Positions 8,598 to 54,907 of a stretch of 64,000 nt of DNA are shown here, one piece after another. How positions within the stretch are numbered: position 1 is the first letter of the stretch; each line of letters starts with the position of its first letter. A model generated the notes under the pieces. It had not been told where the DNA came from. It saw nothing but the letters and a program-made list of their open reading frames with translations, and made no database searches. The position numbers were made by a program, and so were the translations under genes. Source of the DNA: an uncultured Gammaproteobacteria bacterium (GTDB lineage: Bacteria; Pseudomonadota; Gammaproteobacteria; DRLM01); assembly GCA_963729605.1 (NCBI GenBank), contig CAVSNY010000006.1:416001-480000 (forward strand), given 5' to 3'.

Positions 8598-9168
8598 TTC
8601 ATCCTCATGGCGAAGGCCGTTGCGAAGACCGGCGGTCTTACGCATGCGGCTCATGGTAACGGCCTTGAGGGGTGGGCGAAAGCGCCAAACCCGGCTTTTT
8701 TCTCGACCTGTGAGGCCGGTCACAGGAGCGCCGACGACGGGGATGGACCCCTGCCAACCGGCACCGCTCGGCAACCGTCGAGATCGATAGCGGCGGCGGC
8801 ACGCATGCATTCGGGTTGAGCCCGTTCCTGCAATATGCGCGAGTTCGCCGTGTGATGTTAAACGGCGCGTTATTCACGGCTCCGTCATTCACTCGCGTTG
8901 CTTGGCGGCGTATTTTCGTATTTATGAGACGCGTCAGGCGTGATCACCATCGACTCCTCGTCTTGATTAAACAGCGGAAATAACTGTCTTATCAATGCAC
9001 TTACCACTACCATAGATATAGTGAGTATTATATCCCGCCGCCATCATCGCTACGCCACATAGCGCAAGGTAGCGTCGATTCCACCTTTAGGTTGCAAGCA
9101 TCAGTTCATCAGTCTATTTTTAAATAGACAAGGAATAACAAATAAAGGGTCCAGCAAGTAAAAGGAGG

Positions 9169-14712: not shown

Positions 14713-14746
14713 AAGTCTATTCCTTGATAGGGGGGCTATCTGTACG

Positions 14747-15187
14747 TTATTTGGCATTGCGATTCATTTCTTCGTGTAACACGCGAGTGCCTTCATCCAA
14801 GGCGGTCACGGCCTTTTGCGCCTTCGCGGCGCGGGTCTTGACCGTCGCGAGCTGGGCATCGACCTGGGCCTGTTCGGCCAATGTCAGCGCCTTTTGGTAT
14901 TCCTTGTCCGCCATGGCTTTATTGGCGGCAGCCAGTTTGTCCTGCGCCGCCTTCATCTCCACGGACGCAAATTCGGTGGCGCCGGCATTGGTCGCGTTGG
15001 TTACCGCTGCACTGGATACGGCCAACTGCTCGGTGGGCGCCGGGATGCTCGCGCAACCGGAAATGACTACGGCACAGACCATAACGCCCAGGGCGAGACG
15101 CCGTGAATAACGGGTTAACGCGGGTGTTATAGCCTTACTGGAATTTACTGCGGTTTTGTTAGGATGCACTTTACTCTCCTTATGCAT
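14747..15187 (-). CDS. DUF4398 domain lipoprotein
   Basis: Lipobox ISGC, A-rich helix AQVDAQLA; usual partner of the DUF4398-OmpA gene. Start uncertain. Confidence 0.85.
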   Translation of the reverse strand: MHKESKVHPNKTAVNSSKAITPALTRYSRRLALGVMVCAVVISGCASIPAPTEQLAVSSAAVTNATNAGATEFASVEMKAAQDKLAAANKAMADKEYQKALTLAEQAQVDAQLATVKTRAAKAQKAVTALDEGTRVLHEEMNRNAK

Positions 15188-15274
15188 GATTCAGGGCGCC
15201 TTGCGCCGGATTTAACGCATTCGAAGCTTGCGATACACGTCAATATGCGGAGAATACGTGGCGATGGGCGGACC

Positions 15275-15375
15275 GTCTGTGCGCTACCGTACCAAGCTCA
15301 GGTTTCTACTGGTGACGGTACGCTTGGGATGATGCAAGGGAACATATCATGCGGTATGTGCGCCGGCGTACAGAC
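15275..15375. promoter_or_regulatory. Two inverted copies of the motif GTCTGTRCG-N4-CGYAC (candidate operators)
   Basis: GTCTGTGCGCTACCGTAC (15275-15292) and GTGCGCCGGCGTACAGAC (15358-15375) in the divergent intergenic region. Confidence 0.5.
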
Positions 15376-15470
15376 AACACGCAAATGACTTTCACCGTGA
15401 TACACTGCCGCACATTCCTCCACGCCGTCATGCAATCTCGCCGCGGACCGCAACTTCGGGAAATTGATTG

Positions 15471-16223
15471 ATGCCCACACCCCATAGTCCGATGCAAAAT
15501 CATCTTCTCGCCGCGTTGCCCGCTGCCGAGTTCGGCCGTTTGTCGCCCCATCTGGAACTGGTGACGATGCCGCTCGGTAAAGCCCTTTACGAATCGGGCG
15601 GCCGTCTGGAACATGTTTATTTCCCTACCACCTCCATCGTGTCGCTGCTGTACGTATTGGAAAACGGCGCATCAGCGGAAATAGCGGTGGTCGGCTATGA
15701 AGGAATACTGGGTATCTCGTTATTTATGGGTGGCGAAACCACACCCAGCCGCGCGGTAGTGCAGAGCGCGGGACACGGTTATCGCCTGGAAGCGCATCTA
15801 CTGAAACAGGAATTCAACCGGGCCGGGCCGGTGCTGCGTTTGTTGCTGCGTTATACCCAGGCGCTGATCACCCAGATGACGCAGACCGCGGTATGTAATC
15901 GCCATCACTCGGTCGAGCAGCAACTGTGCCGCTGGTTATTGCTAAGCCTCGACCGCTTATCCACCGACTCGCTGACCATGACCCAGGAGTTGATCGCTAA
16001 CATGCTCGGGGTACGCCGCGAAGGAGTGACCGAGGCCGCCGGAAATCTCCAGCGCGCGGGATTGATCCGCTACAGCCGTGGCCATATCGAAGTGTTGAAC
16101 CGACCGGGTTTGGAAAAGACGGTATGCGAATGCTACGGTGTGGTTAAACTGGAATTTGATCGTCTGCTTTCAGATATCCCTCGCGGCGATCCTTCTATGT
16201 CCTTGGCCAACCCGGCGCCGTAG
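15471..16223 (+). CDS. Crp/Fnr-family transcriptional regulator
   Basis: QNHLLAALP, VYFPTTSIVS, VCNRHHSVEQQLCRWLL, HTH TQELIANMLGVRREGVT. Confidence 0.92.
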   Translation: MPTPHSPMQNHLLAALPAAEFGRLSPHLELVTMPLGKALYESGGRLEHVYFPTTSIVSLLYVLENGASAEIAVVGYEGILGISLFMGGETTPSRAVVQSAGHGYRLEAHLLKQEFNRAGPVLRLLLRYTQALITQMTQTAVCNRHHSVEQQLCRWLLLSLDRLSTDSLTMTQELIANMLGVRREGVTEAAGNLQRAGLIRYSRGHIEVLNRPGLEKTVCECYGVVKLEFDRLLSDIPRGDPSMSLANPAP

Positions 16224-16319: not shown

Positions 16320-17024
16320 TCACTGCGCCGGCGCCACCGACAACTCCCGCCGGCCACTCTCGGCCGAATCCGCATCCGGACTATTGCGATCAACCCACTC
16401 TTGACCGCGCCGTGCCAGCCACTCCGCCTCTTCCTTGGGCAGCGGGCCGCGCTTGAGGGTATTCTCCCATTCCCACAACGCGGCGCGGGCGCGCCGCACG
16501 TAATCTTCCGACGCCGGATCCGAAGGTGCGAGATGGATGTAGGTACGCATGGCGCCCAAGGCGACGGGCAGGTCATTCATGCCTTCCGCCGCGACCGCCA
16601 GGCCCCAATAGGCATTGCCTTGATAAGGCCGCAGGTCGACGGCGGTTTGGAAAAAATCCCGCGCCGCGGCGTATTGCTCCAAGCCCAACAGCGCATAACC
16701 CATGTTGACGTATGCCTCCGGCATGCGCGGCGCGAGGGCGATGACCCGGTGCAGGGCGGTGATGGCGTATTCGTATTCGCGGGCATGCAGCATCATCACC
16801 GCTTGCTGGAAGCGTTGGGTGATTTGTTCTTCGCGAGCGGCGCTGGCGTGTCCGCGCGGATCTAGCACCGGGTCGATGCGCGGGGCGACCGTGTCTTCCA
16901 AGGTCGCCAATTCCGGGCTGCGGCTGAGTCCGCCCAGCAGGCCGATGATGGCCAGCAGCAACAGCACTGACAGGAAAGAGGCGACCTTGGGCTGGCCGGC
17001 AATCACGCTATCGAGCGAACTCAT
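16320..17024 (-). CDS. Membrane-anchored TPR protein
   Basis: N-terminal TM; TPR pattern PEAYVNMGYALL/AYWGLAVA; overlaps the ccsA stop. Confidence 0.8.
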   Translation of the reverse strand: MSSLDSVIAGQPKVASFLSVLLLLAIIGLLGGLSRSPELATLEDTVAPRIDPVLDPRGHASAAREEQITQRFQQAVMMLHAREYEYAITALHRVIALAPRMPEAYVNMGYALLGLEQYAAARDFFQTAVDLRPYQGNAYWGLAVAAEGMNDLPVALGAMRTYIHLAPSDPASEDYVRRARAALWEWENTLKRGPLPKEEAEWLARRGQEWVDRNSPDADSAESGRRELSVAPAQ

Positions 17025-17878
17025 ATAACGCCTTTATGCGCGGCGGTGCTGTAGAAGGGCGTACCGAAATAGGTGAGGAAGGCGATGATGAAGATCGCGA
17101 TGATGAATACCGCACCGGCCCGCATCGGCAGTCGATAGGTCAAGCGCGCATGGATGGCGCCGCCTAAGGCCAGCCAGGTGAGAAACGACGAAGTTTCAAG
17201 CGCGTCCCATGACCAGTAACGGCCCCAGGCGTCCTGCGCCCACACCGCGCCGGCGATCAGCATGCCGCTGTGAAAGATAAAGGCGAGCAGCATGAAACGC
17301 CACGCCAGGTAATCGACCATGGCGTCATTGGGCAATTGGCGGAACCAAGGTTCCAGACGCCGCACGCCGCGCAGCAACAAAGCGCCGGCTAGACCGGTGC
17401 CGACCAGGCAGAAGCCGAGGAAGAATTTACCGAGACCGACATGCGCCCACAGCCAATTGTTGTAATAGGTGGGCGGAAAGGCGGTGTCGGTGGGTTCGAG
17501 CATCAACACCCACACACCCAGGATCCACATCAAGGGCAAGGCCACTACCGCGCTGGCGCGGATCGCCGGATAACGCCAATAGGCGTAGCTGTAAATGACG
17601 CCGAGGCTGAACAACTGGCTTATCAACAATTCGAAGAGATTGACGAATGGCCCGTGACCGATGCGCATCCAGCGTTCCGCCAAGGCCATCGCCAGCAGCG
17701 CGACGCCGGCGAGAATGAAGATGAACGCCGGGGTTTCGTAGCTGCGATTCACCGCGGCGCCCGCCGCGCCGCCGCGCGTCAGCACCACGCCGCGAATCAC
17801 AATAAAAGTGGCCAAGGCATACGCGGCCATTCCCGCCCACAACCAGGGTAGCTCGGTCATCGTTTTCCACTCATTCAT
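17021..17878 (-). CDS. ccsA: Cytochrome c biogenesis protein CcsA/ResC (system II)
   Basis: WWD motif GAVWAQDAWGRYWSWDALE, conserved His residues, multiple TM helices. Confidence 0.88.
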   Translation of the reverse strand: MNEWKTMTELPWLWAGMAAYALATFIVIRGVVLTRGGAAGAAVNRSYETPAFIFILAGVALLAMALAERWMRIGHGPFVNLFELLISQLFSLGVIYSYAYWRYPAIRASAVVALPLMWILGVWVLMLEPTDTAFPPTYYNNWLWAHVGLGKFFLGFCLVGTGLAGALLLRGVRRLEPWFRQLPNDAMVDYLAWRFMLLAFIFHSGMLIAGAVWAQDAWGRYWSWDALETSSFLTWLALGGAIHARLTYRLPMRAGAVFIIAIFIIAFLTYFGTPFYSTAAHKGVI

Positions 17879-18903
17879 ATTGCACCCCCTTTGGAAGAAG
17901 CGGGATATCTTCCCGCCTTCATTGCCTCGGCGGCCGCCCCGGCCGGCATGCGCGCGCCGAATTTACGCCAGAAATGGACGGACATGCCTATCACGCCGAA
18001 TACCGATATCACGAACAGCCACTGCAAGGTGGGATCGTAAAATATTTTATAACCCATCCAGGTCGACAGGCGTTCATACCGCAACTGTCCGCCGGGTAAA
18101 TTCACGGTCTCGCCCGGCTGTAGTTCGACGCGATCGGCGCCGGTGTTGACCACGAGCGTGCCTTTGGCCTTTTGGCCGTCCAATACCCACGCCGCTTTTT
18201 CCGTTATGCCGGTTTCGAGGCGCAGCCAGAATTTGATCTCCGGCCCACCGGGCGGCTGCCAGGTATTGTCCTGTTTGAATTCGAACAAGGGATAGGCCGG
18301 CATGTGCACCACGCCGGTCTGCGGCTCACCCCGCTCGGGCATCCAGGTCAGCAGCGGCGCGAAACCTTTGTTGAACGAGGTGTAGAAACGATAGCCTTCC
18401 AACACCAGAGGCCGGTCGTCACCGACTATGCGGCGTTCCCAACCGCCTTGCCCGTCCGGCACGCGCACCTCGCTGTGGGTGAGACCGCGTACCATGCCCG
18501 GCGCGTAATCGACGGTATAAGGCCCTTGCACGAAGACCAGTTTATCCAAATTACCCGCATGCCAGGGACCGCGGGTATCGTCGAACAATTCGTCGGCGGA
18601 AAACGGGGTGTCCTGCACCATCTCCACATGGGCCTCCAAGTGGGTGAGACGGCCTATCGCGGCCAATATCACCACGCCCAGCAGCGCGATATGAAACGTG
18701 AGCAGGCCGCCGCGGCGATTGATCCGCGGGTTGGTGATGATGGCGGCCAATAGATTGACCGCCAAAAACGCCATGGGCACCACCAGCACCCACACCGAGG
18801 TCGTCACCGGGTTGCCATAACTCAACCCCGCGCCGATGGCCAGCAACACCATGCCCACCAAGGTGAGCCGCAGGGAGGCGAGAGGTCTCAGGACGGCATT
18901 CAT
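17875..18903 (-). CDS. resB: Cytochrome c biogenesis protein ResB/CcsB-like
   Basis: LASLRLT N-terminus, TM helices with His (TFHIAL), periplasmic domain, YDP before the C-terminal TM; adjacent to ccsA. Confidence 0.8.
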   Translation of the reverse strand: MNAVLRPLASLRLTLVGMVLLAIGAGLSYGNPVTTSVWVLVVPMAFLAVNLLAAIITNPRINRRGGLLTFHIALLGVVILAAIGRLTHLEAHVEMVQDTPFSADELFDDTRGPWHAGNLDKLVFVQGPYTVDYAPGMVRGLTHSEVRVPDGQGGWERRIVGDDRPLVLEGYRFYTSFNKGFAPLLTWMPERGEPQTGVVHMPAYPLFEFKQDNTWQPPGGPEIKFWLRLETGITEKAAWVLDGQKAKGTLVVNTGADRVELQPGETVNLPGGQLRYERLSTWMGYKIFYDPTLQWLFVISVFGVIGMSVHFWRKFGARMPAGAAAEAMKAGRYPASSKGGAI

Positions 18904-21587
18904 GGAAGATTGTTGCAGGTTTCTTCACCGTTGCCGTTCATCCACGTAATACCTCGCTTGCCATTGCCCGGCGCGCCGGCTGAACCGCAACTGACCGGCG
19001 TCCATTCACCGCTGCGTTTGAAGTTGACCACCTTCAGCACCGAGCCGTTGTAATACGGCCCGCGGTAATAACGCTGCGGGCTGGGCGTGCGCACCTGAGT
19101 GCCCGCCGGCAAACCGGCTTCCAGTCCCACGTCGTTCAAGTTGACCAGGAAGTTTTTATTCTTCCAGCCGTGGGGCACGGCGATATGGCAGAAATTGCAG
19201 CGGAAATTGCGCACCACGTCTTCCTTGGCGTGACCGGTATGGAGATTGACGTTGGGCACGCCCACGCAAGACGCATTACCGGTGCTGCGCCGGAAACCGC
19301 TCTGCAAGGTTTGATTGCCGGCCAAAGGACCGGCGGGAAATGCTTTGCCGTAGTAATCGTAATTATGGCAGCGGAAACACAAGGCGTCGGGGGTGGCCGC
19401 GCCGGTATTGTCGTTCCACGGACCCTTCAGAATAAAATCATTGTTCGAACCGTGCGGTCCCCAGGAATTGCCTTGCGCACCGCCGCGCGGCACGGCGCCG
19501 TCATTGACGTCGGTATCCGAACCATGGCAATCGGTGCAATACATGGTCTGGGTACCTACGCCCGCGTTGAAAGGCGTTACCCAGACATCGGGACTATTGA
19601 TGCTGCGTACCGCGATCGTGCGCCCGGTGTCCTTGAGCGCGGGGTGCCAGGACCGATGATTGTTGTCCACCAGATTGACGCAGTTGCCCTGACTGTCACG
19701 ATAACCCGGCCAATTTTCCGAAGTCGCGTAATTGGCGTCGGTATAGGTGTCCTGGCATTCGCCTATGGCACCGGTGAAGAACGCGCCGGTCGGTGTAGTG
19801 GGAGTGCCCTCGCCTTTGTGATCGTCCGGCGATTGATATTCCATGGCCTGATTGGTGTATTGGAACATCGCGTTGGTCCCCGGCGGCGTACCGCCCCGGA
19901 AGGATCCCAGGTTGGGCGGTGAATCATACGCGTTGTTGGAGTGGCACTTCATGCACACCTGGTATTCGCGAGTGACGTAAGGCGCATTGACGTCGGTGCT
20001 GCCGCCCACGCCGGGATCACCGCGTTTGATCTCGAAGATCGTTGGCTCGCTGCCGAACTCGGTCGACGGCCAACCGCCCGGTTCCACGCCGGAAATACCG
20101 CGCAATACGCCGGAAGCCAAATTGGTGTGGATACCGCCGGTGGCGGCGAGCTGACTGGCGGTATGATTGTGGGTGCCTTCCTCCGGGTCAGGTATGTTGG
20201 GATCATCGTTGAATAACCGATTGCGGATCACCCGATGGGGATTGTGGCAGTCGGTACATTCCGCATGGCGGTTGTTGGGATCGCCTTTGCCCATGTGGAG
20301 AGTGGATTCCACGAAATCTTTACCGCCTTGCTGGCTCCTGAGCGGGCCGGTGCCAATGTCGTGCATCTCGCGCCCGGCCGGTTGATCGGCGCTGGCGATG
20401 GGCATGTGCCGGGCCATGGTGGTGAAGTCGGTTTTAATGTCGGGCACGCCGAAGCCGGGGCGGGTGCTTTGGGTGCCGCCGGTAGGACCGCCGCGCAGCA
20501 CGTCGCCGTCCGCCGAATGACAGGCGTAACAGGTTTCTTCGATGGCCGGTTGTCCCCCATGACGGAATTTGGCGCCGCTCGCGGTGATCGCCGGCGGGCC
20601 GTCGGCGCCTTCACGCAGAATGCGCCGCGAGCCTTGCACGGTGTGGGGATCATGGCAATTCAAACAGGCCGCCTGCCACACTTGGATGCCGCGGGGAAAT
20701 TCGCGGAGATCGGCCGCGGCATCTTGGTACTCATAGGTGGCGACGGCGGAGCTGGCGTGAGCCGAACCGACCCAGCCCGCCTTGTCGTGGCAGCCCAGGC
20801 AAATGATGTCGTTCTCGGCGTTGAACTGGCGATCCACCGGCTCTGCTCTCTGAAAGCGGTTCGCCCGCAGAAACTTGATATTTTCCCCCGAGGTATCGCG
20901 GATATGGGGATCGTGACAACTGACGCATTCCAAGCGATTTTCTTCCAAGGGCAGCAACGGCGCGGGCTGGCCTTGCACCCGGTCGCCCACATGGGCAACC
21001 ATAGCGGGATCATACAGCTCACCGTCACGCTCGGCTTGCGCGCTGTCGTAGGTAAAGGAGATGGGATGGTCGTTACGCAAATCCACGCCCAATCTGCGGG
21101 TGAAGCCGGTGGTGGATCCCATGCCTTCGGGAATGGTATCGCCCGGTCCGATGCCCGGGCCGGTGAAATCGATATTGGGATCTTCGACGCGATTGAGCAC
21201 ATTGACCGCGCCCAGGGCGAGGGTGCCGTCATGGCAGGATAAACACAATTTAGACTTGGCGCGCGGCTGATCCAGATCGATCGCGTCGAGCGAGCCGGAG
21301 GAATACGGCGTATAGGTGGTACCGGAGAGTTTGCGGTTCCACAACGGCGCCATGGGCGCCTTGGTCGCGCCGTGCGGCGTGTGACAGAAGGCGCATATCT
21401 GCGACTCGCTGCTGGCGGCGGCATTGCGTTGCGCGCCGTCGGGCAGGATGGGGATCACCGTCGCGGAAAAATTGTGCCTGGTGTTGCGGATATCGGAAAT
21501 ACGTTCGGCCTGCGCCGGCAGGGCGGATAAAATCAAACACGCAGCGGTCAGCGCGAGGATGCACCCGTTTCGCAGCGTCCGTATCAT
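18900..21587 (-). CDS. Secreted undecaheme cytochrome c (UetJ-like) with an OmcE-like N-terminal module
   Basis: Signal peptide AQA; 11 CxxCH counted: CAFCH, CLSCH, CVSCH, CLGCH, CLNCH, CYACH, CTDCH, CMKCH, CTDCH, CFRCH, CNFCH. Confidence 0.9.
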   Translation of the reverse strand: MIRTLRNGCILALTAACLILSALPAQAERISDIRNTRHNFSATVIPILPDGAQRNAAASSESQICAFCHTPHGATKAPMAPLWNRKLSGTTYTPYSSGSLDAIDLDQPRAKSKLCLSCHDGTLALGAVNVLNRVEDPNIDFTGPGIGPGDTIPEGMGSTTGFTRRLGVDLRNDHPISFTYDSAQAERDGELYDPAMVAHVGDRVQGQPAPLLPLEENRLECVSCHDPHIRDTSGENIKFLRANRFQRAEPVDRQFNAENDIICLGCHDKAGWVGSAHASSAVATYEYQDAAADLREFPRGIQVWQAACLNCHDPHTVQGSRRILREGADGPPAITASGAKFRHGGQPAIEETCYACHSADGDVLRGGPTGGTQSTRPGFGVPDIKTDFTTMARHMPIASADQPAGREMHDIGTGPLRSQQGGKDFVESTLHMGKGDPNNRHAECTDCHNPHRVIRNRLFNDDPNIPDPEEGTHNHTASQLAATGGIHTNLASGVLRGISGVEPGGWPSTEFGSEPTIFEIKRGDPGVGGSTDVNAPYVTREYQVCMKCHSNNAYDSPPNLGSFRGGTPPGTNAMFQYTNQAMEYQSPDDHKGEGTPTTPTGAFFTGAIGECQDTYTDANYATSENWPGYRDSQGNCVNLVDNNHRSWHPALKDTGRTIAVRSINSPDVWVTPFNAGVGTQTMYCTDCHGSDTDVNDGAVPRGGAQGNSWGPHGSNNDFILKGPWNDNTGAATPDALCFRCHNYDYYGKAFPAGPLAGNQTLQSGFRRSTGNASCVGVPNVNLHTGHAKEDVVRNFRCNFCHIAVPHGWKNKNFLVNLNDVGLEAGLPAGTQVRTPSPQRYYRGPYYNGSVLKVVNFKRSGEWTPVSCGSAGAPGNGKRGITWMNGNGEETCNNLP

Positions 21588-22651
21588 GCGCCCTCTCTCA
21601 GGAACTGAAGTATGACCACCCGGCCATTAAAACTGTCGGCGATGTAGACCCGGTCGCGGTGATCGGTCCACACTCCCGCCGGCAGATAAAATTGCCCGAG
21701 CCCCCCGCCCGTACCGCCGATCGGCAACAATAACTCACCTTCGGGGTTGAATACTAACAAATAATCAAAATACGATTCTACCACATAGACATTGCCGTCT
21801 TTATCCACGCCGACGCCCTTGGGGCGCGGCATGTCGCCCACGAATATCCCGCGGCGGCCGAACACTTGCAAAGGCTCGCCATCGGCGGACACCACCTGCA
21901 CCCGGGCGTTGAGGGTATCCGTCACATAGAGCCGATTATCGGCGAAGCTCAAATATGTGGGGGAGTTATATTCACCGGCCGCCTCGCCGCGGTGACCGAA
22001 GGTTTTCACCAATTCGCCGCCGTCGCTGAATACTTTGATGGCGTGGCCGTGGGTGTCGGCCACATAAATCCGGCCGTTCTCCGCATCCCGCGCCACGCCC
22101 GTGGGCCGCACCAACTGGTCTTTACCAAGAATGCCGCGCGGAACACCGTCTTTATTCAAACGGACCACGTAACCCAGTTCCGCGTCGGCCACCAGGATTT
22201 CGCCGTCGGCGCCCAACGCGATCCCGATCGGGGCAACGAACCGGACATTGTCGCCGGCCATCTCCCACACCCGCAAACTACCGGCCTGCTCATCGAACAC
22301 ATAGACCGCTTGGCGGCTGACGTCGGTGACATACACCCGGCCCGCCGGGTCGGTCACTCCGCCCTGCGGCCGCTGCAAGACCACCGGCACATGTTTGGGC
22401 GAGGTCAAGCCGACCAGCCACTTCAAAAAGCGCGTGCCGCTGGACCCGAAACCTTGCTCGGGGACGTGGATATTTTGTTCGCCGACGAGCTCGCCCACAT
22501 ACTGATACCGCGGCGTCTCGGGCGGCGCGGGCCACACCGCCGTGAAAGGCGGATCGGGCTGATAACGCAGCGTGCTGTGGGTCGGCGCGCATCCCGCCAA
22601 TATCGCGGACGCGACCAACAACCCCGCCGCGAACTTGGCACGTCTCACCAC
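21584..22651 (-). CDS. NHL-repeat beta-propeller lipoprotein (UetI-like)
   Basis: Lipobox LAGC; repeats of PxGV...IYVAD, YVTDTLNARVQ, YIADSFNGRV. Confidence 0.88.
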   Translation of the reverse strand: MVRRAKFAAGLLVASAILAGCAPTHSTLRYQPDPPFTAVWPAPPETPRYQYVGELVGEQNIHVPEQGFGSSGTRFLKWLVGLTSPKHVPVVLQRPQGGVTDPAGRVYVTDVSRQAVYVFDEQAGSLRVWEMAGDNVRFVAPIGIALGADGEILVADAELGYVVRLNKDGVPRGILGKDQLVRPTGVARDAENGRIYVADTHGHAIKVFSDGGELVKTFGHRGEAAGEYNSPTYLSFADNRLYVTDTLNARVQVVSADGEPLQVFGRRGIFVGDMPRPKGVGVDKDGNVYVVESYFDYLLVFNPEGELLLPIGGTGGGLGQFYLPAGVWTDHRDRVYIADSFNGRVVILQFLREGA

Positions 22652-22667: not shown

Positions 22668-23723
22668 TTATTGTTGCGTTTTGAATCCGCCTGCCGAGAT
22701 CTTGAACACTTGGATACGGCCGTTGAGACTGTCGGCCACGTATAAAGACCCCCCATCCAGCCACACGTCGCTCACGCCGTTGAAGCGGCCGGGCCCCACC
22801 CCGGCGCCGCCAAGGGTCGCGACCAACTTACCTTGCTCGAATATCCGTACGGTGTTATTAAAAAAGTCGGAGACGTAAGTTTGATTATCGGCGTCGACCG
22901 CCACGGCATTGGGAAACACCACGGTATCGGGATCGAAGGCGTATTTGAACGCGCCTTCCTCCGAGAGGACTTGGGCGCGATGGGCGAAACGCGCGGTGAC
23001 ATATACACCGTCGGGACCGCGAGCCATGGAGGTGATATTCAAGAATTCACCCTCGCCTTCACCGCGGCCACCCAGGGCGCGCCACAAACCGCCCGCGCCA
23101 TTGAAGATCAACACGTGATCGAGCACGCCGTCGGCGACGTAGACATCGCCGGTGGTCTCGTCCACCGACACCGCCACCGGCCGCCGCAGATTCATGGAAT
23201 CCTGGAAGGTGGCCTCCAGACGGCCATTGCGATTGAACTTGAGCACCTTGCCGCCGACGCTATCGGCGAGATAAAACGTGCGGTCGCCGGTGACGAAGAT
23301 ATCCGCCACATCGCCGACCACCAGCCCGCGCAAACTGACCAGCACTTCCTGGGTTCCGGAAATACGATCATAAAGGATCACCTGCTGCTGATCGGCATCG
23401 ACCACGTACACCCAGTGATCTTTGGCCGCCACCGCCACCGGACGGCGGAAACGCGCATCCTGCAAGAGCACCAGGCCTTCCGTGTCGCCGGTCATCACCG
23501 GCCGCAGCTCGCCGTTGCCGAAAAAGGCGTTGCCGGTCCGGCCGCCACTGATGCTTTCTTCAAAATAAATTTGGGTCGAACCGGTCTCGGCGACCACCAC
23601 GCCTTCGGCGCCCGAGGACATGGGGGTGCCGCCGAACATGGAACATCCGTTCAGTAGCCAGGTGCTGCCGATCAGCAGCGCGGTCAGCGCAGCCCGGCGG
23701 AATCGCGCGGTACGGAGTGGCAT
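22668..23723 (-). CDS. NHL-repeat beta-propeller lipoprotein (UetH-like)
   Basis: Start reassigned to ATG 23723 (MPLRTARF...LLNGC lipobox); RPVAV, VYVAD, YVADSLNGRIQ repeats. Confidence 0.85.
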   Translation of the reverse strand: MPLRTARFRRAALTALLIGSTWLLNGCSMFGGTPMSSGAEGVVVAETGSTQIYFEESISGGRTGNAFFGNGELRPVMTGDTEGLVLLQDARFRRPVAVAAKDHWVYVVDADQQQVILYDRISGTQEVLVSLRGLVVGDVADIFVTGDRTFYLADSVGGKVLKFNRNGRLEATFQDSMNLRRPVAVSVDETTGDVYVADGVLDHVLIFNGAGGLWRALGGRGEGEGEFLNITSMARGPDGVYVTARFAHRAQVLSEEGAFKYAFDPDTVVFPNAVAVDADNQTYVSDFFNNTVRIFEQGKLVATLGGAGVGPGRFNGVSDVWLDGGSLYVADSLNGRIQVFKISAGGFKTQQ

Positions 23724-24286
23724 CGTCCACAATTCATGGTGGGAGGGAAGGCGACCTTGCCATGGCAAACACCGCAGTATTTGCCTTGGATGATGTCCGA
23801 CATGGTAACCGGATTTGCCCCTTTCTGGGGAAGAAAAATCGCGGGATGGCAATTGGCGCAGGTCAACCATTCCGTGTGGGCCAAATGGGGAAAGCGCACG
23901 AAGGGCATGGAACCGGTATTCTTGAAAATGATGTCGAAGTCGGCGACATACATATCCTTGTCGCCCAGCTTGCTCTGCCGCGCGTCGATCATGCCCTTTT
24001 GCAGCACTTGCACCCAATCGATGATGCCGGCGGCGTCGCGCGGGAAATCCTTCATGGATTCCACCGGCTCTTGGAAAATGGTGACGGCGCTGTTGGTGGG
24101 ATCGTGGATACCGTCTTCGATGACGGGCACCACCTCACCTTCGGTTTGGAAGTGCAGGCCCTTGGTCCACACCGGGCCATCTTCCGCGTGCGCCACGACG
24201 GCCCAACCGAAAAACAGGGCGATGGCCACAGCGAAATATCCGCGGAGATTATTCTTAAACGCGTATCGCTCGACGCCTTTATTCAT
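23684..24286 (-). CDS. c7-like triheme cytochrome (UetG-like)
   Basis: Signal peptide AHA; FPHLAH, CANCH, CGVCH, CGRCH. Confidence 0.88.
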   Translation of the reverse strand: MNKGVERYAFKNNLRGYFAVAIALFFGWAVVAHAEDGPVWTKGLHFQTEGEVVPVIEDGIHDPTNSAVTIFQEPVESMKDFPRDAAGIIDWVQVLQKGMIDARQSKLGDKDMYVADFDIIFKNTGSMPFVRFPHLAHTEWLTCANCHPAIFLPQKGANPVTMSDIIQGKYCGVCHGKVAFPPTMNCGRCHSVPRDSAGLR

Positions 24287-24408
24287 GCTGTCCCCATTTG
24301 GCATGCCACGCCCCTGCGGGCGTGGGCTCGGGTAATATAACGTGTTTTCGAGACAAGTCACACTCAAAAACGCGCGCTTGTCCGCGCCACCCTCGGCCTA
24401 CGGGACGA

Positions 24409-26028
24409 CTATTGCACACCCGCCAGCCGCAAAGCCCTTTGTATCCTTTCGGTCGCCGCCTGCATCGCCATCACGGCCATTTTGTGATCGCCCTTGGCCG
24501 CCAATCCCAAGGCCTCGTCATGAACCTCGGTGGCGCGACCGGTCAGTTCGTGCATCATGGTCACCGTTTGCGGCGCCGGACGGCGTTGCTCGATGGCCAC
24601 GGGCACCAGTTCCACGTAACTGCGGTAACGGGACAGCTCGAACTCATATTCATCTTTAGGCGAGGCGAAGTTCTTGTCATAGACCACGGTCTGCGAGTGC
24701 AACATCGCGCTCAAGGCCGCGGTGATCAGCTCATTGGCCGATTCCAGCCGCTTGGCCGCGCCTTCGTGATCGCCTTTGCCCGCCAGGCTTTCCGCCTCGC
24801 TCAGCAGCTTGTCGTATTTGGCCTTGTCCAATTCCTCGCCCGCTTTACCGGGCTTCATGCCCTGCGCCACGTTTTTCTGGTAAGAGGCCTTAAAACCGCC
24901 GACCTGTTCCAGCAAGGCGGCGTAACGGGCTTTGTGGTCCACCGCCGGTTGCTCGGGAACTAAACGGGTGGCGGCATTCATCATCCGCAAGGCCTCGTCC
25001 ACCGAGCCCATGGCCTGGTTATTATCACCGGCGGCGAGCGCGGTACGCACGGCGATCAACTGCTCCTTCGCCCCGGCGACCAAGGCTTGCGCCTCGGCGT
25101 TATTACTGGCGGCCACCCGCTTGGCGGAGGCGGACGAGCCGATCAGCATATCCGCGAAACTCAGCTTCTGCTTCACTTGCTCCGCCGTATAGTTGCGGAC
25201 TATCGGGGTCTCTGCCGCGGGCAGCGCGGGCGGCGCACCCAAGCTCACCTTTTCCCCAGCGTTGACCACGTGAATCCTGCCACCCATATAAGCGTGGTTA
25301 CGGCATTCGTAATACACCTCGTCCGGTGTCGTGGCCGACGGTGTAAAGGTCGCGTCGCCCTTGAAAATAAACTGGCCGGTGATACCGTCGGTCAAGGTGC
25401 CCGCACCGCGGCCCACCGGGCTGGTCGTGAAATAAAAATCGTGCATCACCCCGGTGTCCAAACTAAACGTGTAGGTTACGCCGCGGGTCAGCACCAGCTC
25501 TTTGCCCTGCACGCCGTCCGTCACGAACGCCATGTCCGAACCACGGCCGAAATAAGGGTGACTGGCGTCCTTGGGTCCGGCGACCAACTGAAAAGTTCGC
25601 GGTGTACGATCAGCCACTACGGTGACCGGACCGGGGCGTTGCGCGGCCGGCACGCTTGCCGCGGGTTTGGACGGGACCGGGCTGGGCGCCACTACGGCGG
25701 GGGGCGCGACTACCGGCGCAGGCGCCGCAGCGGGCGGAACGGCTTCGGCGGTTGGAACAACGTCGGCGGGTGGCGCGGATAAATCGGTTTTATTTTCCGG
25801 CGCGGTCTGCGGTGATTCCTCTACCGGCGCGGACGGGGCCTCCGTGCTGCCGGCCTCCGGTTGCGTGAGGGCGTCGTCCGTGGTGGTGGCGACTACACTC
25901 GGCGATTGCGCCGACATGACCGGCGCCGGCGCGGCGGTCTGCGCGACCTCTTTCTTTTCACCGGTGGACACACACGCCGTCATCGCCACCGCGATCGCCA
26001 GACATAACAATTTACGCTTTGAGTTCAT
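24409..26028 (-). CDS. Lipoprotein with Pro/Ala linker, cupredoxin-like motif and helical C-terminus (UetF position)
   Basis: Lipobox MTAC; PA-rich linker; MHDFYF...YYECRNHAYMGG. Confidence 0.8.
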   Translation of the reverse strand: MNSKRKLLCLAIAVAMTACVSTGEKKEVAQTAAPAPVMSAQSPSVVATTTDDALTQPEAGSTEAPSAPVEESPQTAPENKTDLSAPPADVVPTAEAVPPAAAPAPVVAPPAVVAPSPVPSKPAASVPAAQRPGPVTVVADRTPRTFQLVAGPKDASHPYFGRGSDMAFVTDGVQGKELVLTRGVTYTFSLDTGVMHDFYFTTSPVGRGAGTLTDGITGQFIFKGDATFTPSATTPDEVYYECRNHAYMGGRIHVVNAGEKVSLGAPPALPAAETPIVRNYTAEQVKQKLSFADMLIGSSASAKRVAASNNAEAQALVAGAKEQLIAVRTALAAGDNNQAMGSVDEALRMMNAATRLVPEQPAVDHKARYAALLEQVGGFKASYQKNVAQGMKPGKAGEELDKAKYDKLLSEAESLAGKGDHEGAAKRLESANELITAALSAMLHSQTVVYDKNFASPKDEYEFELSRYRSYVELVPVAIEQRRPAPQTVTMMHELTGRATEVHDEALGLAAKGDHKMAVMAMQAATERIQRALRLAGVQ

Positions 26029-26224: not shown

Positions 26225-26926
26225 CTAACGCCAGGGATTCTTAAGCGTGGCGTCGCTCAACGGCGGCGACCAATCCGCGGGCTTGGGCTTGGAGTGGCAC
26301 TTGGAGCAGGTCTTGGTGGTGATCGGGAAAGAAACCTTGCCATGACACACACCGCACTTCTGTCCCAACAGAATGGCCGACATATTGATTTGGTTGGCCC
26401 CTTTCTGCGGGATGAAGATGGCGGGATGACAGTTGGCGCAGGACAGCCATTCGGTGTGTTGACGATGGGGGAACACCACGTCCGGCACCGAGGCCTTCAC
26501 CTCGCGGACGATATCCATGTCCATCACGAAGGGCTCTTCGCTGGAATCGATACGGTCCCAGCGGGGTGAGAGCTTCTTCTCGTCGATGGCCTTCACCCAG
26601 TCGACATGATTGCCGAACTCGGTGGTGGGCAGACCTTTATAGGCCTCCTTAGGCGGCTGGAGAATATGGGTGCCTTCGTTCTCCGGATCGTGATAGCCGC
26701 TCTCCGGCGGCGCCGCGTTGGGATCCTTTTCCTTCTTCAAATTGCGGTTGAAGGTGTTGGAGGACGAGACATCGGCGAGCATCAAGCGTTCGCCGGGCGC
26801 CGCCTGCTGCATGGCACCACTAAACAGACCCGCGTCCGCGGCGAAGGCGGAAGCAGAAACCAGCAGGGTCAACACCGCTGATCCTACAAAGATTTTCAAT
26901 TGTTGTGTCATGACCACGCTCCTCAC
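26225..26926 (-). CDS. c7-like triheme cytochrome (UetE-like)
   Basis: Signal peptide AFA; FPHRQH, CANCH, CGVCH, CSKCH. Confidence 0.88.
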   Translation of the reverse strand: MRSVVMTQQLKIFVGSAVLTLLVSASAFAADAGLFSGAMQQAAPGERLMLADVSSSNTFNRNLKKEKDPNAAPPESGYHDPENEGTHILQPPKEAYKGLPTTEFGNHVDWVKAIDEKKLSPRWDRIDSSEEPFVMDMDIVREVKASVPDVVFPHRQHTEWLSCANCHPAIFIPQKGANQINMSAILLGQKCGVCHGKVSFPITTKTCSKCHSKPKPADWSPPLSDATLKNPWR

Positions 26927-26935: not shown

Positions 26936-27382
26936 TTACTGTTTGGCAGGCTGTTGTGGAGCGTTGAGCGCCTTATAAGGTGGCGACACTAGACGCTGCA
27001 CGGTGCTCCCGTGAATGTGGGTCGGCGTGCCAGGTATGCCGGAATGGCACATATTGCAGTTCTCCACGGACCAAGCCACCTCCCCGTTATGGCAAGCGCC
27101 GCAGAATTTACCGTCGATGATCTTGGCCATGGTGATCTTGTTGCCGCCGGCTTTGAACTCGAATCCCAGGTCGGCATGACAGACCTTGCAAGTGAAACGA
27201 ATACGATGAAACCAGTGCGGGAATACCACGGGACGCATACCGGCCGCGTCGGCGTAATTATTAATGATCACATCGGCATATTCCGCTTTGGCGGGGGTCA
27301 TGGCCAGCAGGGCCAGTCCCGCTAACACCCCCAAAATGGAAAATCTCCATTTGATGCTACGGTCGGCTTTGTAGGACGTCAT
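26936..27382 (-). CDS. c7-like triheme cytochrome (UetD-like)
   Basis: Signal peptide AKA; FPHWFH, CKVCH, CGACH, CNMCH. Confidence 0.88.
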   Translation of the reverse strand: MTSYKADRSIKWRFSILGVLAGLALLAMTPAKAEYADVIINNYADAAGMRPVVFPHWFHRIRFTCKVCHADLGFEFKAGGNKITMAKIIDGKFCGACHNGEVAWSVENCNMCHSGIPGTPTHIHGSTVQRLVSPPYKALNAPQQPAKQ

Positions 27383-27460: not shown

Positions 27461-29212
27461 TTAAAATCGGCGCATCACGCGAAAGTATAAGAGCTGCGAA
27501 GCCTCGTGGCCGTTATCCATCCATCTGAAACTCAGGCTGGCGTCCACCAATCCGATGGTGTAATTCAGGCGGTTTTCCCATTCGTTGCGATCCAAACCCT
27601 CACCCGTGGAGGCTTGCGAGAGCCGCAGGTCGGAGTTGAATTGCAGGCGCGGAATACTGAACAGGGTTTGCTGAAGATAACTGATCTGACCGGTGGTGGT
27701 GGTCACCGAGCCGTCATTGGCTCCACCGGAGAAATCGCGCACCACCGTCTGCAACGTCAAATGGCCCGACAACGTGCTGCGCGCACCCAAGGCCTGATAA
27801 CGCGAGGCCTGCAAATTCACCAGCTGCTGCTCATCGCTCAGATCACCGAAATTACGCGAATCCGACAAGGTGAGTTGCACCAGGGTGGTCGCACCCTGAG
27901 TGGACGACTGATTCCAGCCCAAGCTTGCGCTGTGATCCAGGCGATGCTGAGTGGCCTCATCACCGGTGGTCAACACCTCGTTGAAGGCCTGAGTCAGACC
28001 CACGCGCAAAGACGATTGCGGGTCCAGCATCCACATCCTCTGCGCATCGTGACCCAATGAGGCCTGTAACGACTGGACGTTTTCATCCACGTCGCTCTGG
28101 TTTTCCAGCGCGCCGCTGACATACCACTGATACGTAAAACTCCGCCATTCGATCAGATCGGATTGCAGCAGGGCGCCAAGTCGCTGGCGATGCAGGGTTT
28201 GATTGGCGCCATTGATATCCGACTGACTGAAATTGGCGCTGCCGTCAAAGCGCAGCCGTTTCGAATATTGATAGAAGGCGCCCGCCGTCGCGCCGAAGCT
28301 GGCTTGATCGCTGGATTGCGCGGAATTTTCGCCGGCCATGGTATAGGCGCGCGCGCCCGCGCTGACCGTCCAGCGTTTATCGACCGGCCGCCAGAACGTG
28401 AAGCTGGATACCTGGTTGATTTCCGTGGTGACGGTATCCACCAAGCCGGTCGCCCCTTCGAAGGTGGTATCGAGATGGTAATGGCTGGCCTTGGTGTCGA
28501 GCCGGATATCCTCGTTGGGGAAATAATAATGATCGACGTCGAGAATGAAATTTTCTTGGTGGCGATCGGTGCGCGACTGATCGGTGGTTTCTATATTGCC
28601 GCGGAACAACAAGCGCTGGCGGACCGGCCGCCAGTCCAATTCCACGCCCATAATTTCGTTTTCATAGGTACCGCTCAGGTCCGAATCCCAGGTGCGCGCA
28701 CCATATCGCAACTGGGCGCGATGGCCTTCTTCGGTGATGTACGATTGCCGCAAATCCAAATTGGTGGTTTGGTATTCCGAACCGAACACCCGCACCAGCG
28801 GGTTGTAGACCACGGTATTGTCCACCCGGCTGTCGGTGGCTTGATACAACAAGCGGAAAGGGGTGCGGCTGTCCGGCAACACGTTGAGCATCAGGTCGCC
28901 GGAATACACGTCCGAGGTGGTGCTGGTGCTGGCGTTGCCGTCGTCCAGGTCCGAGCTGTCCTTGGCCAGGGTGGCGCCGCCCTCGACGGTGGCGAACCAC
29001 GGCTGCCAGATATAAGAGCGTAAGCGCAGATTTCCCAACAACTGGTTGCTGGTGGCGTCGGTGGTATCGGTGCTGAGCGAACGGAAACTGTAACCCACGC
29101 TGCCTGACACATCCACGGGCAAGGCGCGCGCCGCGGGGCACACGGACACCAGCGCCACCAGCGCCAAGCCCTGGGTGACGTGAGATGCGAACGCAGCACA
29201 GACCCGTCTCAT
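27461..29212 (-). CDS. Large outer-membrane beta-barrel of the cytochrome cluster (UetC-like)
   Basis: Signal peptide ARA; alternating amphipathic strands; C-terminal YFRVMRRF beta-signal. Start set at ATG 29212. Confidence 0.8.
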   Translation of the reverse strand: MRRVCAAFASHVTQGLALVALVSVCPAARALPVDVSGSVGYSFRSLSTDTTDATSNQLLGNLRLRSYIWQPWFATVEGGATLAKDSSDLDDGNASTSTTSDVYSGDLMLNVLPDSRTPFRLLYQATDSRVDNTVVYNPLVRVFGSEYQTTNLDLRQSYITEEGHRAQLRYGARTWDSDLSGTYENEIMGVELDWRPVRQRLLFRGNIETTDQSRTDRHQENFILDVDHYYFPNEDIRLDTKASHYHLDTTFEGATGLVDTVTTEINQVSSFTFWRPVDKRWTVSAGARAYTMAGENSAQSSDQASFGATAGAFYQYSKRLRFDGSANFSQSDINGANQTLHRQRLGALLQSDLIEWRSFTYQWYVSGALENQSDVDENVQSLQASLGHDAQRMWMLDPQSSLRVGLTQAFNEVLTTGDEATQHRLDHSASLGWNQSSTQGATTLVQLTLSDSRNFGDLSDEQQLVNLQASRYQALGARSTLSGHLTLQTVVRDFSGGANDGSVTTTTGQISYLQQTLFSIPRLQFNSDLRLSQASTGEGLDRNEWENRLNYTIGLVDASLSFRWMDNGHEASQLLYFRVMRRF

Positions 29213-29513
29213 TGTTATTATCGCGCGCCCCTCAGTGACATATCCCCTCGAAGCCTCCACCCGGCGCTCCCCCGGATGGCGAGCTACAACGCGCGCGCGG
29301 ACATTGCCCCCGTCCGCCGTCGTGCGCATTGCCGCGCGCCGTAAATTTTTTCACCTTAAGCGACCTCGCACCTCAATGCAAGATCACTCGCCCTCAACGA
29401 CCGGCGCCACTCATTTTTAATCGCCTAGCGGCGCCCACTCTCCCTTGCCCGCCCTGATGTCGCCCGACAATCCCTCCTTGATCGGGACTGAAAATTAATA
29501 CATCGGCCGCAAT

Positions 29514-30329
29514 TTATTTATTATGACAAGTTAAACACACGGCGCTGCCCGCTGGGTCAACGCGAAGGAAAGTGGGGGTCTCATCCACGTGGGGATCATG
29601 GCAGGAGCCGCACTCCACATAAGGCTGCGCCTCGCCCGCATACGCCCCCCGCGTCGCCACCCGGGTATACAGCTTCATATCGGTACGTTCGAAGGATTGA
29701 GTCCCCTCGGGGGTATTGACCCACCACACCCGGCTGGTGCCCATGATCTCTGAATTGGCGGGATGAAAATCCCGGTCCGCGCCCGGTCCGCCCGCGTTCG
29801 ACAGTGAATAACCACCACCCGCGTATTGAATACCGATAGGATGGTCGTTGGTGAGATCCTTGCCCAAATTAGTGATCACCGCCGGCCGGCCGATGCGGCC
29901 TTGCGCGGGCCGCGCCTGTCCGCTCCAGGCCCCGTTGCGAAAACCGGGCACCTGCACGCCGGAGCCCGGCTCGTTGATCAAGGTATCCATGGCTTGCGTG
30001 CCGTCGTGGCAGGAAAGGCAGGCGACCGAGACCGAACCTATCGGCTCGATGGACCCATCGAGGGTGGTGGTGCCGAGTTGATCGTAGGTTTCGTAGCCGG
30101 TGGGGTCGATGTTGCGGTTCCATAATGGAACGGCCGCGCTGGCGTTGGCCCCATGAGGCGTATGACAAAATACGCAGATCTCCCGCGTGCCGTCGATATT
30201 GCTCACGGCATTCAGCCCCCCCGCACTCAAGTTGTGCTTGGTATTAAATACGCCGCCGAGGCTCACGCCCCCCGCCAACCACAGCAGCGTCGCTCCGGCA
30301 AAAACCAAAGCGCGATAACCGGTTTTCAT
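29514..30329 (-). CDS. Secreted tetraheme cytochrome c, OmcE-like (UetA-like)
   Basis: TKHNLS, ICVFCHTPH, PLWNR, CLSCHDG, LGKDLTNDHPIG, ECGSCHDPH, FLR, SAVCLTCHNK. Confidence 0.9.
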   Translation of the reverse strand: MKTGYRALVFAGATLLWLAGGVSLGGVFNTKHNLSAGGLNAVSNIDGTREICVFCHTPHGANASAAVPLWNRNIDPTGYETYDQLGTTTLDGSIEPIGSVSVACLSCHDGTQAMDTLINEPGSGVQVPGFRNGAWSGQARPAQGRIGRPAVITNLGKDLTNDHPIGIQYAGGGYSLSNAGGPGADRDFHPANSEIMGTSRVWWVNTPEGTQSFERTDMKLYTRVATRGAYAGEAQPYVECGSCHDPHVDETPTFLRVDPAGSAVCLTCHNK

Positions 30330-30614
30330 CACTCGCCCCTTTAAAGGGTTTTCCGCCGTCAGATTTTGTCAACTTAGGCGCTAAGTTACAAGTGTTTAAA
30401 CTGACTATGGCCATCGGCGCGCAAAACCTTGTGATTCGCCCGCTTCCAAAGTTAGTCAAAACGGCGCGGGAGCCGAAAATGACCGCGCATCAAAACCAGC
30501 GGCCGCGGCCCTTCCCGTCTCAACGCCTCATCAAACGCGCTTGATTATTTTAGCGACGTCGCCTGACAGTGGAGCAACCGTTGACCGTTCACATCCAACC
30601 GGACATATCGACAT

Positions 30615-31710: not shown

Positions 31711-31891
31711 TATTCCCCCTCGACTATATTGAACCCCGTCTAAATCAACCCCGTCGATCAAAAACCGCCTTGCGCCGCGCGCTGGTCTGATGTTGATATC
31801 TTCCCGTGAAAAATCAGCACGGTAATCGCTCAACAGTCTAACAGTAGCGCATAGCCGCCTTTGTCACAACGCTCTCCTGCATGCGTTTCTC

Positions 31892-34403: not shown

Positions 34404-34477
34404 TGGCTGGGGGACTAGGATTCGAACCTAGGTTGGCGGAGTCAGAGTCCGCAGTCCTACCGCTAGACGATCCCCCA
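34404..34477 (-). tRNA. tRNA-Gln(CTG)
   Basis: TGGGGGATCGTCTAGCGGTAGGACTGCGGA-CT-CTG-AC-TCCGCCAACCTAGGTTCGAATCCTAGTCCCCCAGCCA; folds as a cloverleaf with T-loop GTTCGAAT and encoded CCA. Confidence 0.96.
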
Positions 34478-53699: not shown

Positions 53700-53709
53700 G
53701 GAAGCATAG

Positions 53710-54897: not shown

Positions 54898-54907
54898 GGA
54901 TAACCAT

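Follow-up and report, generated by a model that had tools for sequence, protein, structure and literature searches.

An OmcE-like tetrahaem module forms the head of the undecahaem cytochrome UetJ/OccP, a possible end piece of a cytochrome chain

The OmcE nanowire is among the closest described systems to the protein studied here. OmcE homologues conserve four CxxCH motifs and four further haem-coordinating His residues (PMC13712944), and a His of the neighbouring subunit ligates haem 2 of OmcE (PMC12203936). One haem stays unsatisfied at each interface of the filament, whose tip and anchor proteins are posed as an open question (PMC13712944). In the available text of the same paper, omcE operons are said to encode no OmcE-like tip candidate. 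We analysed a stretch of 64,000 nucleotides from an uncultured gammaproteobacterium (the window; contig CAVSNY010000006.1), focusing on its uetJ/occP-type undecahaem cytochrome c gene (18900..21587, minus strand), which encodes 895 residues with 11 CxxCH motifs.

The gene family already has names. A uetABCDEFGHIJ-ccsAB-nrfG block was described in 'Candidatus (Ca.) Tenderia electrophaga'/Tenderiales (Eddie et al., 10.1101/2022.05.06.490989). There, UetJ was modelled as a long bar with its haems in line, an extracellular 'heme wire', and UetC as a pore. The available text of that preprint gives UetJ 'no other conserved functional domains' and mentions OmcE 0 times. The occA-S cluster of 'Ca. Dechloromonas occultata' encodes OccP, a predicted extracellular undecahaem protein of 922 residues and a proposed terminal Mn(III) reductase. 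This cluster is cytochrome-rich, includes proteins with 6 NHL repeats and is widespread in Beta- and Gammaproteobacteria (10.1101/695007). The uet genes were also reported in Gallionella, where Uet is drawn as a complex of a porin and multihaem cytochromes (PMC10734462). Together, these sources implicate uet/occ in electron uptake from cathodes, in the oxidation of iron and in the reduction of Mn(III) (10.1101/2022.05.06.490989; PMC10734462; 10.1101/695007).

The window has the gene order of the 'Ca. Tenderia electrophaga' cluster, with 11 CxxCH motifs in an undecahaem protein of about 900 residues in both, and differs from it in having no uetB. Because the locus matches the published uet (occ) cluster, we identify the window undecahaem, by gene order and homology, as the UetJ/OccP orthologue and a new member of the already named cluster family, in which eleven CxxCH motifs are spread over about 860-950 residues. 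The likeness to Tenderiales UetJ was measured on two Ca. Tenderia sp. metagenome-assembled genome (MAG) copies (L003 and L006), not on the reference Tel_16545; these are 63% identical to the window UetJ, over residues 12-895 in L003. Its equivalence to OccP, which was proposed with outward electron flow, follows description and synteny, and the Rhodocyclaceae loci L046, L063, L069 and L076 have the same layout as the window. An identical UetJ sequence is present in public collections, where a close homologue is labelled 'hypothetical protein', and the nearest species representative is 91% identical. A word-indexed search returned at least 120 relatives with 53-91% identity, most covering 95-100% of the query. 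Scanning genomes, we found at least 581 stretches that encode UetJ relatives. The best 80 of them, which were fetched, belong for the most part to Gamma-, Beta- and Alphaproteobacteria and Magnetococcales, and some are labelled Nitrospinota or Nitrospirae. Two isolate genomes carry the locus, those of Sphaerotilus mobilis DSM 10617 (L066) and Hydrogenophaga sp. RWCD_12 (L056).

Comparison of the undecahaem with the tetrahaem cytochrome of the same cluster, uetA (29514..30332, minus strand; 272 residues with 4 CxxCH, ending in CHNK like OmcE; the presumed polymer subunit), supports a two-part architecture. The sequence-only reading of this DNA had proposed that the first ~270 residues repeat the tetrahaem's motif series, and we recovered every listed motif at residues 36-267. 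These are TRHNFS (36-41), ICAFCHTPH (64-72), PLWNR (81-85), CLSCHDG (115-121), LGVDLRNDHPIS (166-177), ECVSCHDPH (220-228), FLR (239-241) and CLGCH (263-267). The alignment of the two proteins that it had suggested bears the proposal out, with a similarity well above what chance would give. By BLASTP, UetJ residues 30-269 matched tetrahaem residues 25-272 with 26% identity (E 3e-22). By hhalign, a UetA-family profile built from 118 relatives matched a UetJ 28-270 profile end to end over 212 columns, with a probability of 100% (E 5.3e-54). In sequence searches, both window proteins also matched solved OmcE filaments, 9YUQ being the Desulfuromonas soudanensis OmcE bundle (PMC13712944) and 7TFS the G. 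sulfurreducens OmcE, as identified through a figure legend (PMC12203936). The undecahaem, over residues ~12-230, matched 7TFS at 1.7e-19 and 9YUQ at 3.3e-18, and the tetrahaem matched 9YUQ at 7.9e-28 and 7TFS at 4.8e-24. A UetJ family profile built from 42 sequences, all with 11 CxxCH (alignment A1), matched 7TFS among PDB sequences at 1.3e-28.

The OmcE signature is retained residue by residue. Eight OmcE-type His residues of the UetJ module (H38, H69, H72, H119, H174, H225, H228 and H267) are each present in 42/42 sequences of A1, and they match the invariant His of the UetA family, of which there are exactly eight. The N-arm motif xT[KR]HN[LF] occurs in all 178 full-length 11-haem relatives, orphan copies included. 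OmcE nanowire subunits and UetJ thus have four CxxCH motifs and four further His in common, and UetJ adds 625 residues and seven haems. In 118/118 UetA sequences, the final CxxCH starts 7 residues before the chain end, while UetJ runs on for these 625 residues. Since its chain does not end right after the fourth CxxCH, we do not file UetJ as a member of the OmcE family, although by homology it contains an OmcE-like module. On these alignments, the architecture of an OmcE/UetA-like tetrahaem module followed by a seven-haem extension, as the earlier reading had it, is supported. The module spans residues 28-270 (20778..21506, minus strand) and comprises the N-arm NTRH38NFS, haems 1-4 and the distal His residues H72, H174 and H228. 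The extension spans residues 271-895 (18903..20777, minus strand), opens with an invariant GW..SAH277 and carries haems 5-11. The CxxCH motifs start at residues 65, 115, 221, 263, 308, 353, 444, 545, 684, 737 and 797.

A quick IQ-TREE search placed 43 UetA rows and 80 UetJ N-module rows on the two sides of one branch of length about 2, with an SH-like approximate likelihood ratio (SH-aLRT) of 100. As the rows divide at this single branch, the tree indicates that one old duplication and fusion gave rise to the UetJ head. Judged from these sequences, the fusion of head and extension is ancient and fixed. The UetJ precursor begins with a Sec-type signal peptide at residues 1-27 (21507..21587, minus strand), with the cleavage site (LPAQA/ER) read from the sequence. 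Cys residues C9 and C17 of this region are each retained in 2/42 relatives, and a lipobox-like pattern precedes the arm His in only 11/178 relatives; UetJ is therefore probably not a lipoprotein.

We searched the extension alone (residues 271-895) against 1.84 billion representatives and obtained 389 matches at E<=0.001. Among the best 150 of these, 77 are at least 750 residues long; 69 of the 77 have 11 CxxCH motifs, three have 12, three have 9, one has 8 and one has 7. Three long carriers of the extension that have no module motifs start in mid-module or look frameshifted or truncated. A search for shorter proteins gave 193 matches, most of them labelled 'partial' or located on contigs a few kb long. 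Neither among the long representatives in the best 150 of the 389 matches nor among the 193 shorter matches did we find a convincing stand-alone or split extension. AlphaFold2 (AF2) predicted the extension on its own, from 50 diverse sequences, as one confident unit, with a mean predicted local distance difference test score (pLDDT) of 79.3 and a predicted template modelling score (pTM) of 0.84. Searched with Foldseek against 350,542 PDB chains, this model had no match at E<=0.001; 38 matches passed E<=10, led by one at E 4.8. Coil-rich cytochromes are a weak spot of Foldseek, and the PDB library used may be older than 9YUQ. In the ESM Atlas, the extension and the tail matched only generic multihaem clusters, the best score for the tail being 0.85; a 438-residue cluster from Thermodesulfobacteriota scored 0.92. 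The large terminal adhesion domain that had been envisaged for the extension thus found no backing, as neither the extension nor the tail has a family, feature or fold match of that kind.

The extension is richer in Gly and Pro than the head, and this part of the earlier description held. Its seven further CxxCH motifs lie in sequence of which Gly and Pro make up 19-24%, depending on the part, versus 15% of the N-module. There are 79 residues per haem in UetJ overall and 89 in the extension. Across the 178 relatives, the spacing from haem 4 to haem 5 is rigid (45 +/- 3 residues), and the insert between haems 8 and 9 is hypervariable (65-232 residues). The last residue is Pro in 141/178 relatives. 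Identity to the reference is 0.70 over residues 28-270, 0.68 over residues 811-895 and 0.53 over residues 561-680. Five consecutive di-haem pieces of UetJ each pass the Pfam model Paired_CXXCH_1 (28.1-33.9 bits, cut-off 20.6), and residues 561-669 and 780-895 have no Pfam match. Comparing head and extension by hhalign, we obtained a best probability of 50% with 42 sequences. With 100 sequences, haems 3-4 matched haems 5-6 locally as a di-haem (86%, E 5.6e-6), and haems 1-4 matched haems 5-8 colinearly (67%, E 5.1e-5). As the repeated Paired_CXXCH_1 units explain these matches at least in part, a second OmcE-like module at haems 5-8 is suggestive only.

Beyond the eight OmcE-type His, twelve more His residues outside CxxCH are invariant in A1, and ten of them are still invariant in a more diverse alignment (A3). 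One residue invariant in both, H277, lies eight residues beyond the end point of OmcE-type proteins. The extra Cys residues outside CxxCH had been taken as a sign of disulphides, and this fits two pairs and does not fit a fifth residue. C867 and C891 are each present in 42/42 sequences of A1. C611 and C636, on a predicted beta-hairpin, occur together in 22 sequences, are both missing in 19 and are represented by a single Cys in 1; because they come and go together, a C611-C636 disulphide in an optional loop fits. C774 (19266-19268, minus strand) is present in 39/42 sequences without a conserved partner Cys; in the more diverse set of 50 sequences, its column falls below 90% conservation. It could be a free thiol or a ligand in a His/Cys haem, as in some sulfur-cycle cytochromes.

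How would such a protein work beside UetA? We tentatively favour, at somewhat less than even confidence and from sequence comparison, that UetJ occurs once, as a non-repeating member, at the end of a haem chain in which UetA is the repeat unit. The UetJ module would keep the head-to-tail equipment of OmcE, namely the N-arm His, the haem-2 site, whose sixth ligand in OmcE belongs to the next subunit, and the stacking end haems. Because this equipment appears to be retained, the module could attach to a UetA oligomer or filament at one end, and docking onto a UetA polymer is plausible. UetA ends after its fourth CxxCH and UetJ continues into seven more haems, so that side of UetJ would be filled in cis by the extension and the other polymerisation face would stay free. 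No further UetA would then add on the extension side, and UetJ would be not an internal subunit but only the last member of the chain. Electron flow between the UetA chain and the bar of 11 haems would run either way, as uptake in cathode and iron oxidisers and as output in Mn(III) reduction.

Genome neighbourhood and evolutionary rates lend this end-piece proposal indirect support. We counted same-strand genes upstream of uetJ at 52 loci with at least 9 kb of flank; UetA was encoded at 43 of them, UetC at 45, UetD at 47, UetE at 45, UetF at 44, UetG at 43, UetH at 32 and UetI at 44. We also compared rates across 33 taxa, with the distances of ResB and CcsA removed by regression. UetA correlated with UetJ at 0.69, with UetE at 0.53, with UetC at 0.44, with UetD at 0.41 and with UetI at 0.16, and the UetA-UetJ correlation was the higher one in at least 98.7% of the 300 resamplings of taxa. 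This covariation may reflect a shared compartment only.

Several observations weigh against UetJ being the end piece of a UetA chain. Polymerisation of UetA is itself presumed from homology to OmcE, for which it is solved. The OmcE fold of the UetJ module is likewise a prediction from sequence. An AF2 model of full-length UetJ (42 sequences, no haems) was of low confidence (mean pLDDT 46.1, pTM 0.43, below 50 over residues 22-244), and a Foldseek search of the PDB with it gave 3 matches at E<=10 and 0 at E<=0.001; the model speaks neither for nor against an OmcE fold. There are 16 invariant His outside CxxCH in A1 for 11 haems, so the arm His and the haem-2 site could be served in cis. Within UetJ, the head correlates least with UetA (0.58, versus 0.68 for the extension). 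Four of the 52 loci (L022, L040, L051 and L070) have no uet gene upstream, and five (L016, L028, L030, L045 and L071) lack UetA in the fetched flank although other uet genes are there; in L016 and L071, UetA probably lies beyond it. In the mini-clusters of a Colwellia MAG (L030) and an Enterobacterales MAG (L045), which run trihaem-trihaem-UetI-UetJ-ResB...CcsA-TPR, neither a tetrahaem nor a barrel is encoded within 10 kb. Tandem UetJ paralogues, recent duplicates, occur in L017, L022, L025 and L070. Finally, the length-adjusted log2 expression reported for Ca. Tenderia electrophaga from a metatranscriptome is 9.91 for UetA, 8.66 for UetJ, 7.98 for UetC and 10.3-11.5 for the trihaems (PMC5371394). 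This puts UetA:UetJ transcripts at about 2.4:1, which is not expected of a long homopolymer with one cap. A fixed complex or a short oligomer would account for such a ratio better than would a singly capped filament of micrometre length, mRNA being a weak proxy for protein.

Two of these loci have further peculiarities. The L030 mini-cluster is flanked by sensor kinase genes, GGDEF genes and an IS110 transposase, and L022 has a run of at least three UetJ genes, of which two have fewer CxxCH motifs or are cut by the contig end. A third locus, L026 of an Arenicellales MAG, encodes after its TPR gene a second, very divergent UetA-like tetrahaem (14724-15572, plus strand) in which the His of CHTPH is replaced (CHFPQ). 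It is a possible variant or terminal subunit of OmcE-like type, such as was sought in PMC13712944.

Much of the evidence against an end piece of a UetA chain would suit a second explanation, which we regard as a serious possibility, still clearly short of even. UetJ would be the self-contained terminal cytochrome of a porin-cytochrome complex, at the cell surface or threading the UetC barrel, and its partners in electron exchange would be electrodes, minerals or chelated Mn(III). Shared ancestry alone would then explain the OmcE-like module, with no filament-type contact to UetA, which would be a separate small extracellular cytochrome. This is the picture in the published models (10.1101/2022.05.06.490989; PMC10734462; 10.1101/695007). 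It agrees with near-stoichiometric transcripts of UetA, UetJ and UetC, with UetJ genes that have no uetA nearby, with orphan and tandem paralogues, with invariant His that suffice to ligate all 11 haems in cis, and with the five Paired_CXXCH_1 di-haem units, which are common in many multihaem cytochromes. It accounts less well for a head that is colinear with UetA and OmcE over its full length, N-terminal arm included, which goes beyond generic di-haem units, or for an arm motif that none of the 178 full-length 11-haem relatives has lost. UetA and UetJ are also linked at most loci and covary more than any other pair involving UetA, and UetJ stands outside the MtrC/OmcA and MtrA/DmsE families and has no conserved lipoprotein signal.

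We compared UetJ with those families directly. MtrC/OmcA/UndA, deca- and undecahaems of the outer surface, and MtrA/DmsE, decahaems inserted in a barrel, resemble it in being large multihaem proteins that work with an outer-membrane barrel, and PF22113 (MtrC/MtrF domain II/IV) gave a local match to UetJ residues 215-317 (34.2 bits, cut-off 30). Membership in MtrC/OmcA/UndA was rejected, since TIGR03507 gave no match and there is no conserved lipoprotein signal. Membership in the MtrA/DmsE decahaem family was rejected as well; TIGR03508 scored 41 bits against a cut-off of 192.2, and UetJ has 79 residues per haem versus about 30-35.

If UetJ does end a UetA chain, it would sit either at the distal tip or next to the cell, as an adaptor or nucleator at the UetC barrel beside the trihaems. 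We lean slightly towards the cell-proximal position, for four reasons. The two ends of UetJ are the most conserved parts and the middle the least; uetI and uetJ are coupled through an ATGA, with an estimated gap within +/-30 nucleotides in 48/61 cases; UetJ:UetC transcripts are near 1.6:1; and the trihaem-UetI-UetJ core persists in mini-clusters with no UetA or UetC nearby. That UetJ faces outward is suggested by its hypervariable, disulphide-stapled insert together with the published, predicted extracellular location.

Some of these points would also fit a periplasmic or periplasm-spanning haem wire or electron store, in which UetJ would work with the c7 trihaems and UetI and never meet UetA. 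The tightest genetic partners of uetJ are uetI, the trihaems and the ccs genes, which persist in mini-clusters without uetA or uetC; UetJ has a Sec signal only; and its C-terminal end is conserved. Yet UetA covaries with UetJ far more than with UetD or UetI, the insert between haems 8 and 9 with its optional stapled hairpin looks exposed to the outside, and the published localisation, from predictions only, is extracellular (10.1101/2022.05.06.490989; 10.1101/695007). We consider this explanation improbable.

The universal N-arm His could in principle serve UetJ itself. UetJ would then be a repeating 11-haem filament subunit, its arm His ligating a haem in the C-terminal domain of the next copy, and might co-polymerise with UetA. 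The surplus of invariant His, the invariant C-terminal end with its frequent final Pro and the tandem paralogues are in line with this. But the C-terminal domain shows no similarity to the arm-receiving face of OmcE; when the N-module or UetA was aligned with residues 561-895 by hhalign, the probability did not exceed 35%. We know of no cytochrome filament (OmcS, OmcE, OmcZ, AvECN, PcECN) with a subunit as large as UetJ, and this also counts against a self-polymer. We give it very little credence.

Returning to UetJ as a possible end piece of a UetA chain, an analogy lies in chaperone-usher pili. In these, minor terminal subunits act as the tip adhesin or as an anchor or terminator pilin. The likeness is that one gene per cluster encodes the joining module of the major subunit plus an extra part, so that the product fits only at the end. 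The pilus analogy for OmcE filament ends was raised in the Discussion of PMC13712944. The differences are plain: the fold is unrelated, pilins join by donor-strand exchange and cytochrome wires by haem stacking and His ligation, UetJ has no detected adhesin-like domain, and the transcript ratio is far from one in hundreds. The pilus-tip comparison of the sequence-only reading, with one rare tip and many subunits, fits poorly with this ratio and with the UetJ genes that have no uetA nearby.

The remaining genes of the block lie on the minus strand around uetJ. The uetC-type candidate for an outer-membrane beta-barrel of large size is an open reading frame (ORF) of 622 residues at 27461..29329, whose true start may be 29212. 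It has no match in Pfam, NCBIfam or a PDB sequence search; we recognised it by position and by similarity to the same gene at 45/52 loci, and it is a candidate barrel by size, position and the prediction in 10.1101/2022.05.06.490989, not by a family model. Three c7-type trihaem cytochromes follow at 26936..27382 (uetD; TIGR04257 nanowire_3heme), 26225..26926 (uetE; TIGR04257 as well) and 23684..24367 (uetG). Between uetE and uetG, uetF (24409..26028) encodes a 539-residue lipoprotein with the lipobox MTAC and a cupredoxin-like C-x2-H-x2-M motif, and it has no match in a PDB sequence search. Two NHL beta-propeller lipoproteins come next. The first, uetH (22668..23723; MPLRTARF...LLNGC), has its likely start ATG at 23723, the longest ORF reaching to 24017. 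The second, uetI (21584..22651), is six-bladed, has the lipobox ILAGC, matches generic NHL propellers in the PDB and is translationally coupled to uetJ. The uetJ start overlaps the uetI stop and the uetJ stop overlaps the resB-like start, with an ATGA at either junction. Downstream of uetJ lie the ResB-like System II cytochrome c maturation protein (17875..18903), coupled to the uetJ stop, a CcsA/CcsB-type haem-handling protein of System II (17021..17878) and an NrfG-like TPR protein (16320..17024), the conserved last gene of the block. The features by which PMC13712944 recognises OmcE nanowire loci, a large beta-barrel (here a candidate), two beta-propeller lipoproteins and resB/ccsB, are present in the window.

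Some details of the block stand apart from the UetJ question. The type-1-copper-like C-x2-H-x2-M of UetF, at residue 242, appears as a simple pattern in only 17/76 UetF-like ORFs of related loci. The peptidyl-prolyl isomerase gene uetB corresponds to a gap of ~1 kb in most related loci and is absent here and in the two closest loci, L001 and L014. The 185-nucleotide spacer between uetA and uetC (29330-29513) folds into a 14-bp hairpin (z = -3.0). Structured RNA with z < -2 follows uetA at 18/44 loci, compared with 9/61 coding controls, a weak signal obtained with mononucleotide shuffles. Possibly the hairpin raises the output of UetA, as an attenuator or stabiliser.

Upstream of uetA lie three tandem Gram-negative porin genes. 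The third (30664-31833, minus strand) has an in-frame stop (…DLPMTTR*SDRD…) and is, from its sequence, probably a pseudogene, and its paralogues at 31940-33007 and 33163-34215 are intact. A Crp/Fnr-type gene (15468-16223, plus strand; cNMP-binding domain and HTH_Crp_2) adjoins the TPR end on the opposite strand and is a candidate regulator. A secreted S8 subtilase that carries PPC and PKD domains is encoded at 6513-8810 (minus strand), some 8 kb away from the cluster. The OmcZ nanowire is matured by subtilisin-like processing (PMC12307469); any such role of the window subtilase would be conjecture. The window also holds an IS4/IS5-family transposase (5552-6325, minus strand), a single tRNA-Gln (34404-34477), a segment at 45086-48623 with a TraF-like protein, a PEP-CTERM protein and a phage-tail-collar-domain protein, and, at 52461-63699, an RND efflux system, a copper P-type ATPase and a CusS-type sensor kinase.

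The initiation, termination, cell attachment and outer-membrane wiring of cytochrome nanowires are an open problem in the field. The uet/occ cluster is the proteobacterial counterpart of omcE operons, and it encodes an OmcE-like candidate for a tip or anchor of a kind not found in those operons, as far as their published account is available. In the literature searched, a scope that took in the Tenderiales preprint and part of the nanowire papers, we found no link between UetJ/OccP and OmcE; within it, the OmcE-like head is a new domain reading of a known family. UetJ might thus be the first 'minor subunit' of a cytochrome nanowire, its predicted OmcE-like head capping, seeding or anchoring a UetA polymer that would be wired through seven haems to the periplasmic trihaems or to the outside. 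We offer this fuller picture as a possibility that falls well short of an even chance.

Even if docking proves false, the 'no conserved domains' annotation is corrected for a family found in at least 581 genome stretches, and OmcE-like modules are still seen reused inside larger cytochromes. If UetJ does dock, one gene would be a handle to locate filament ends, to control filament number and length and to build defined haem wires. And if it is the end piece, cytochrome wires would be heteropolymers with a defined end, like pili, and UetJ would be a concrete candidate for the tip or anchor of OmcE filaments, kept in hundreds of genomes of Proteobacteria, Nitrospinota and Nitrospirota.

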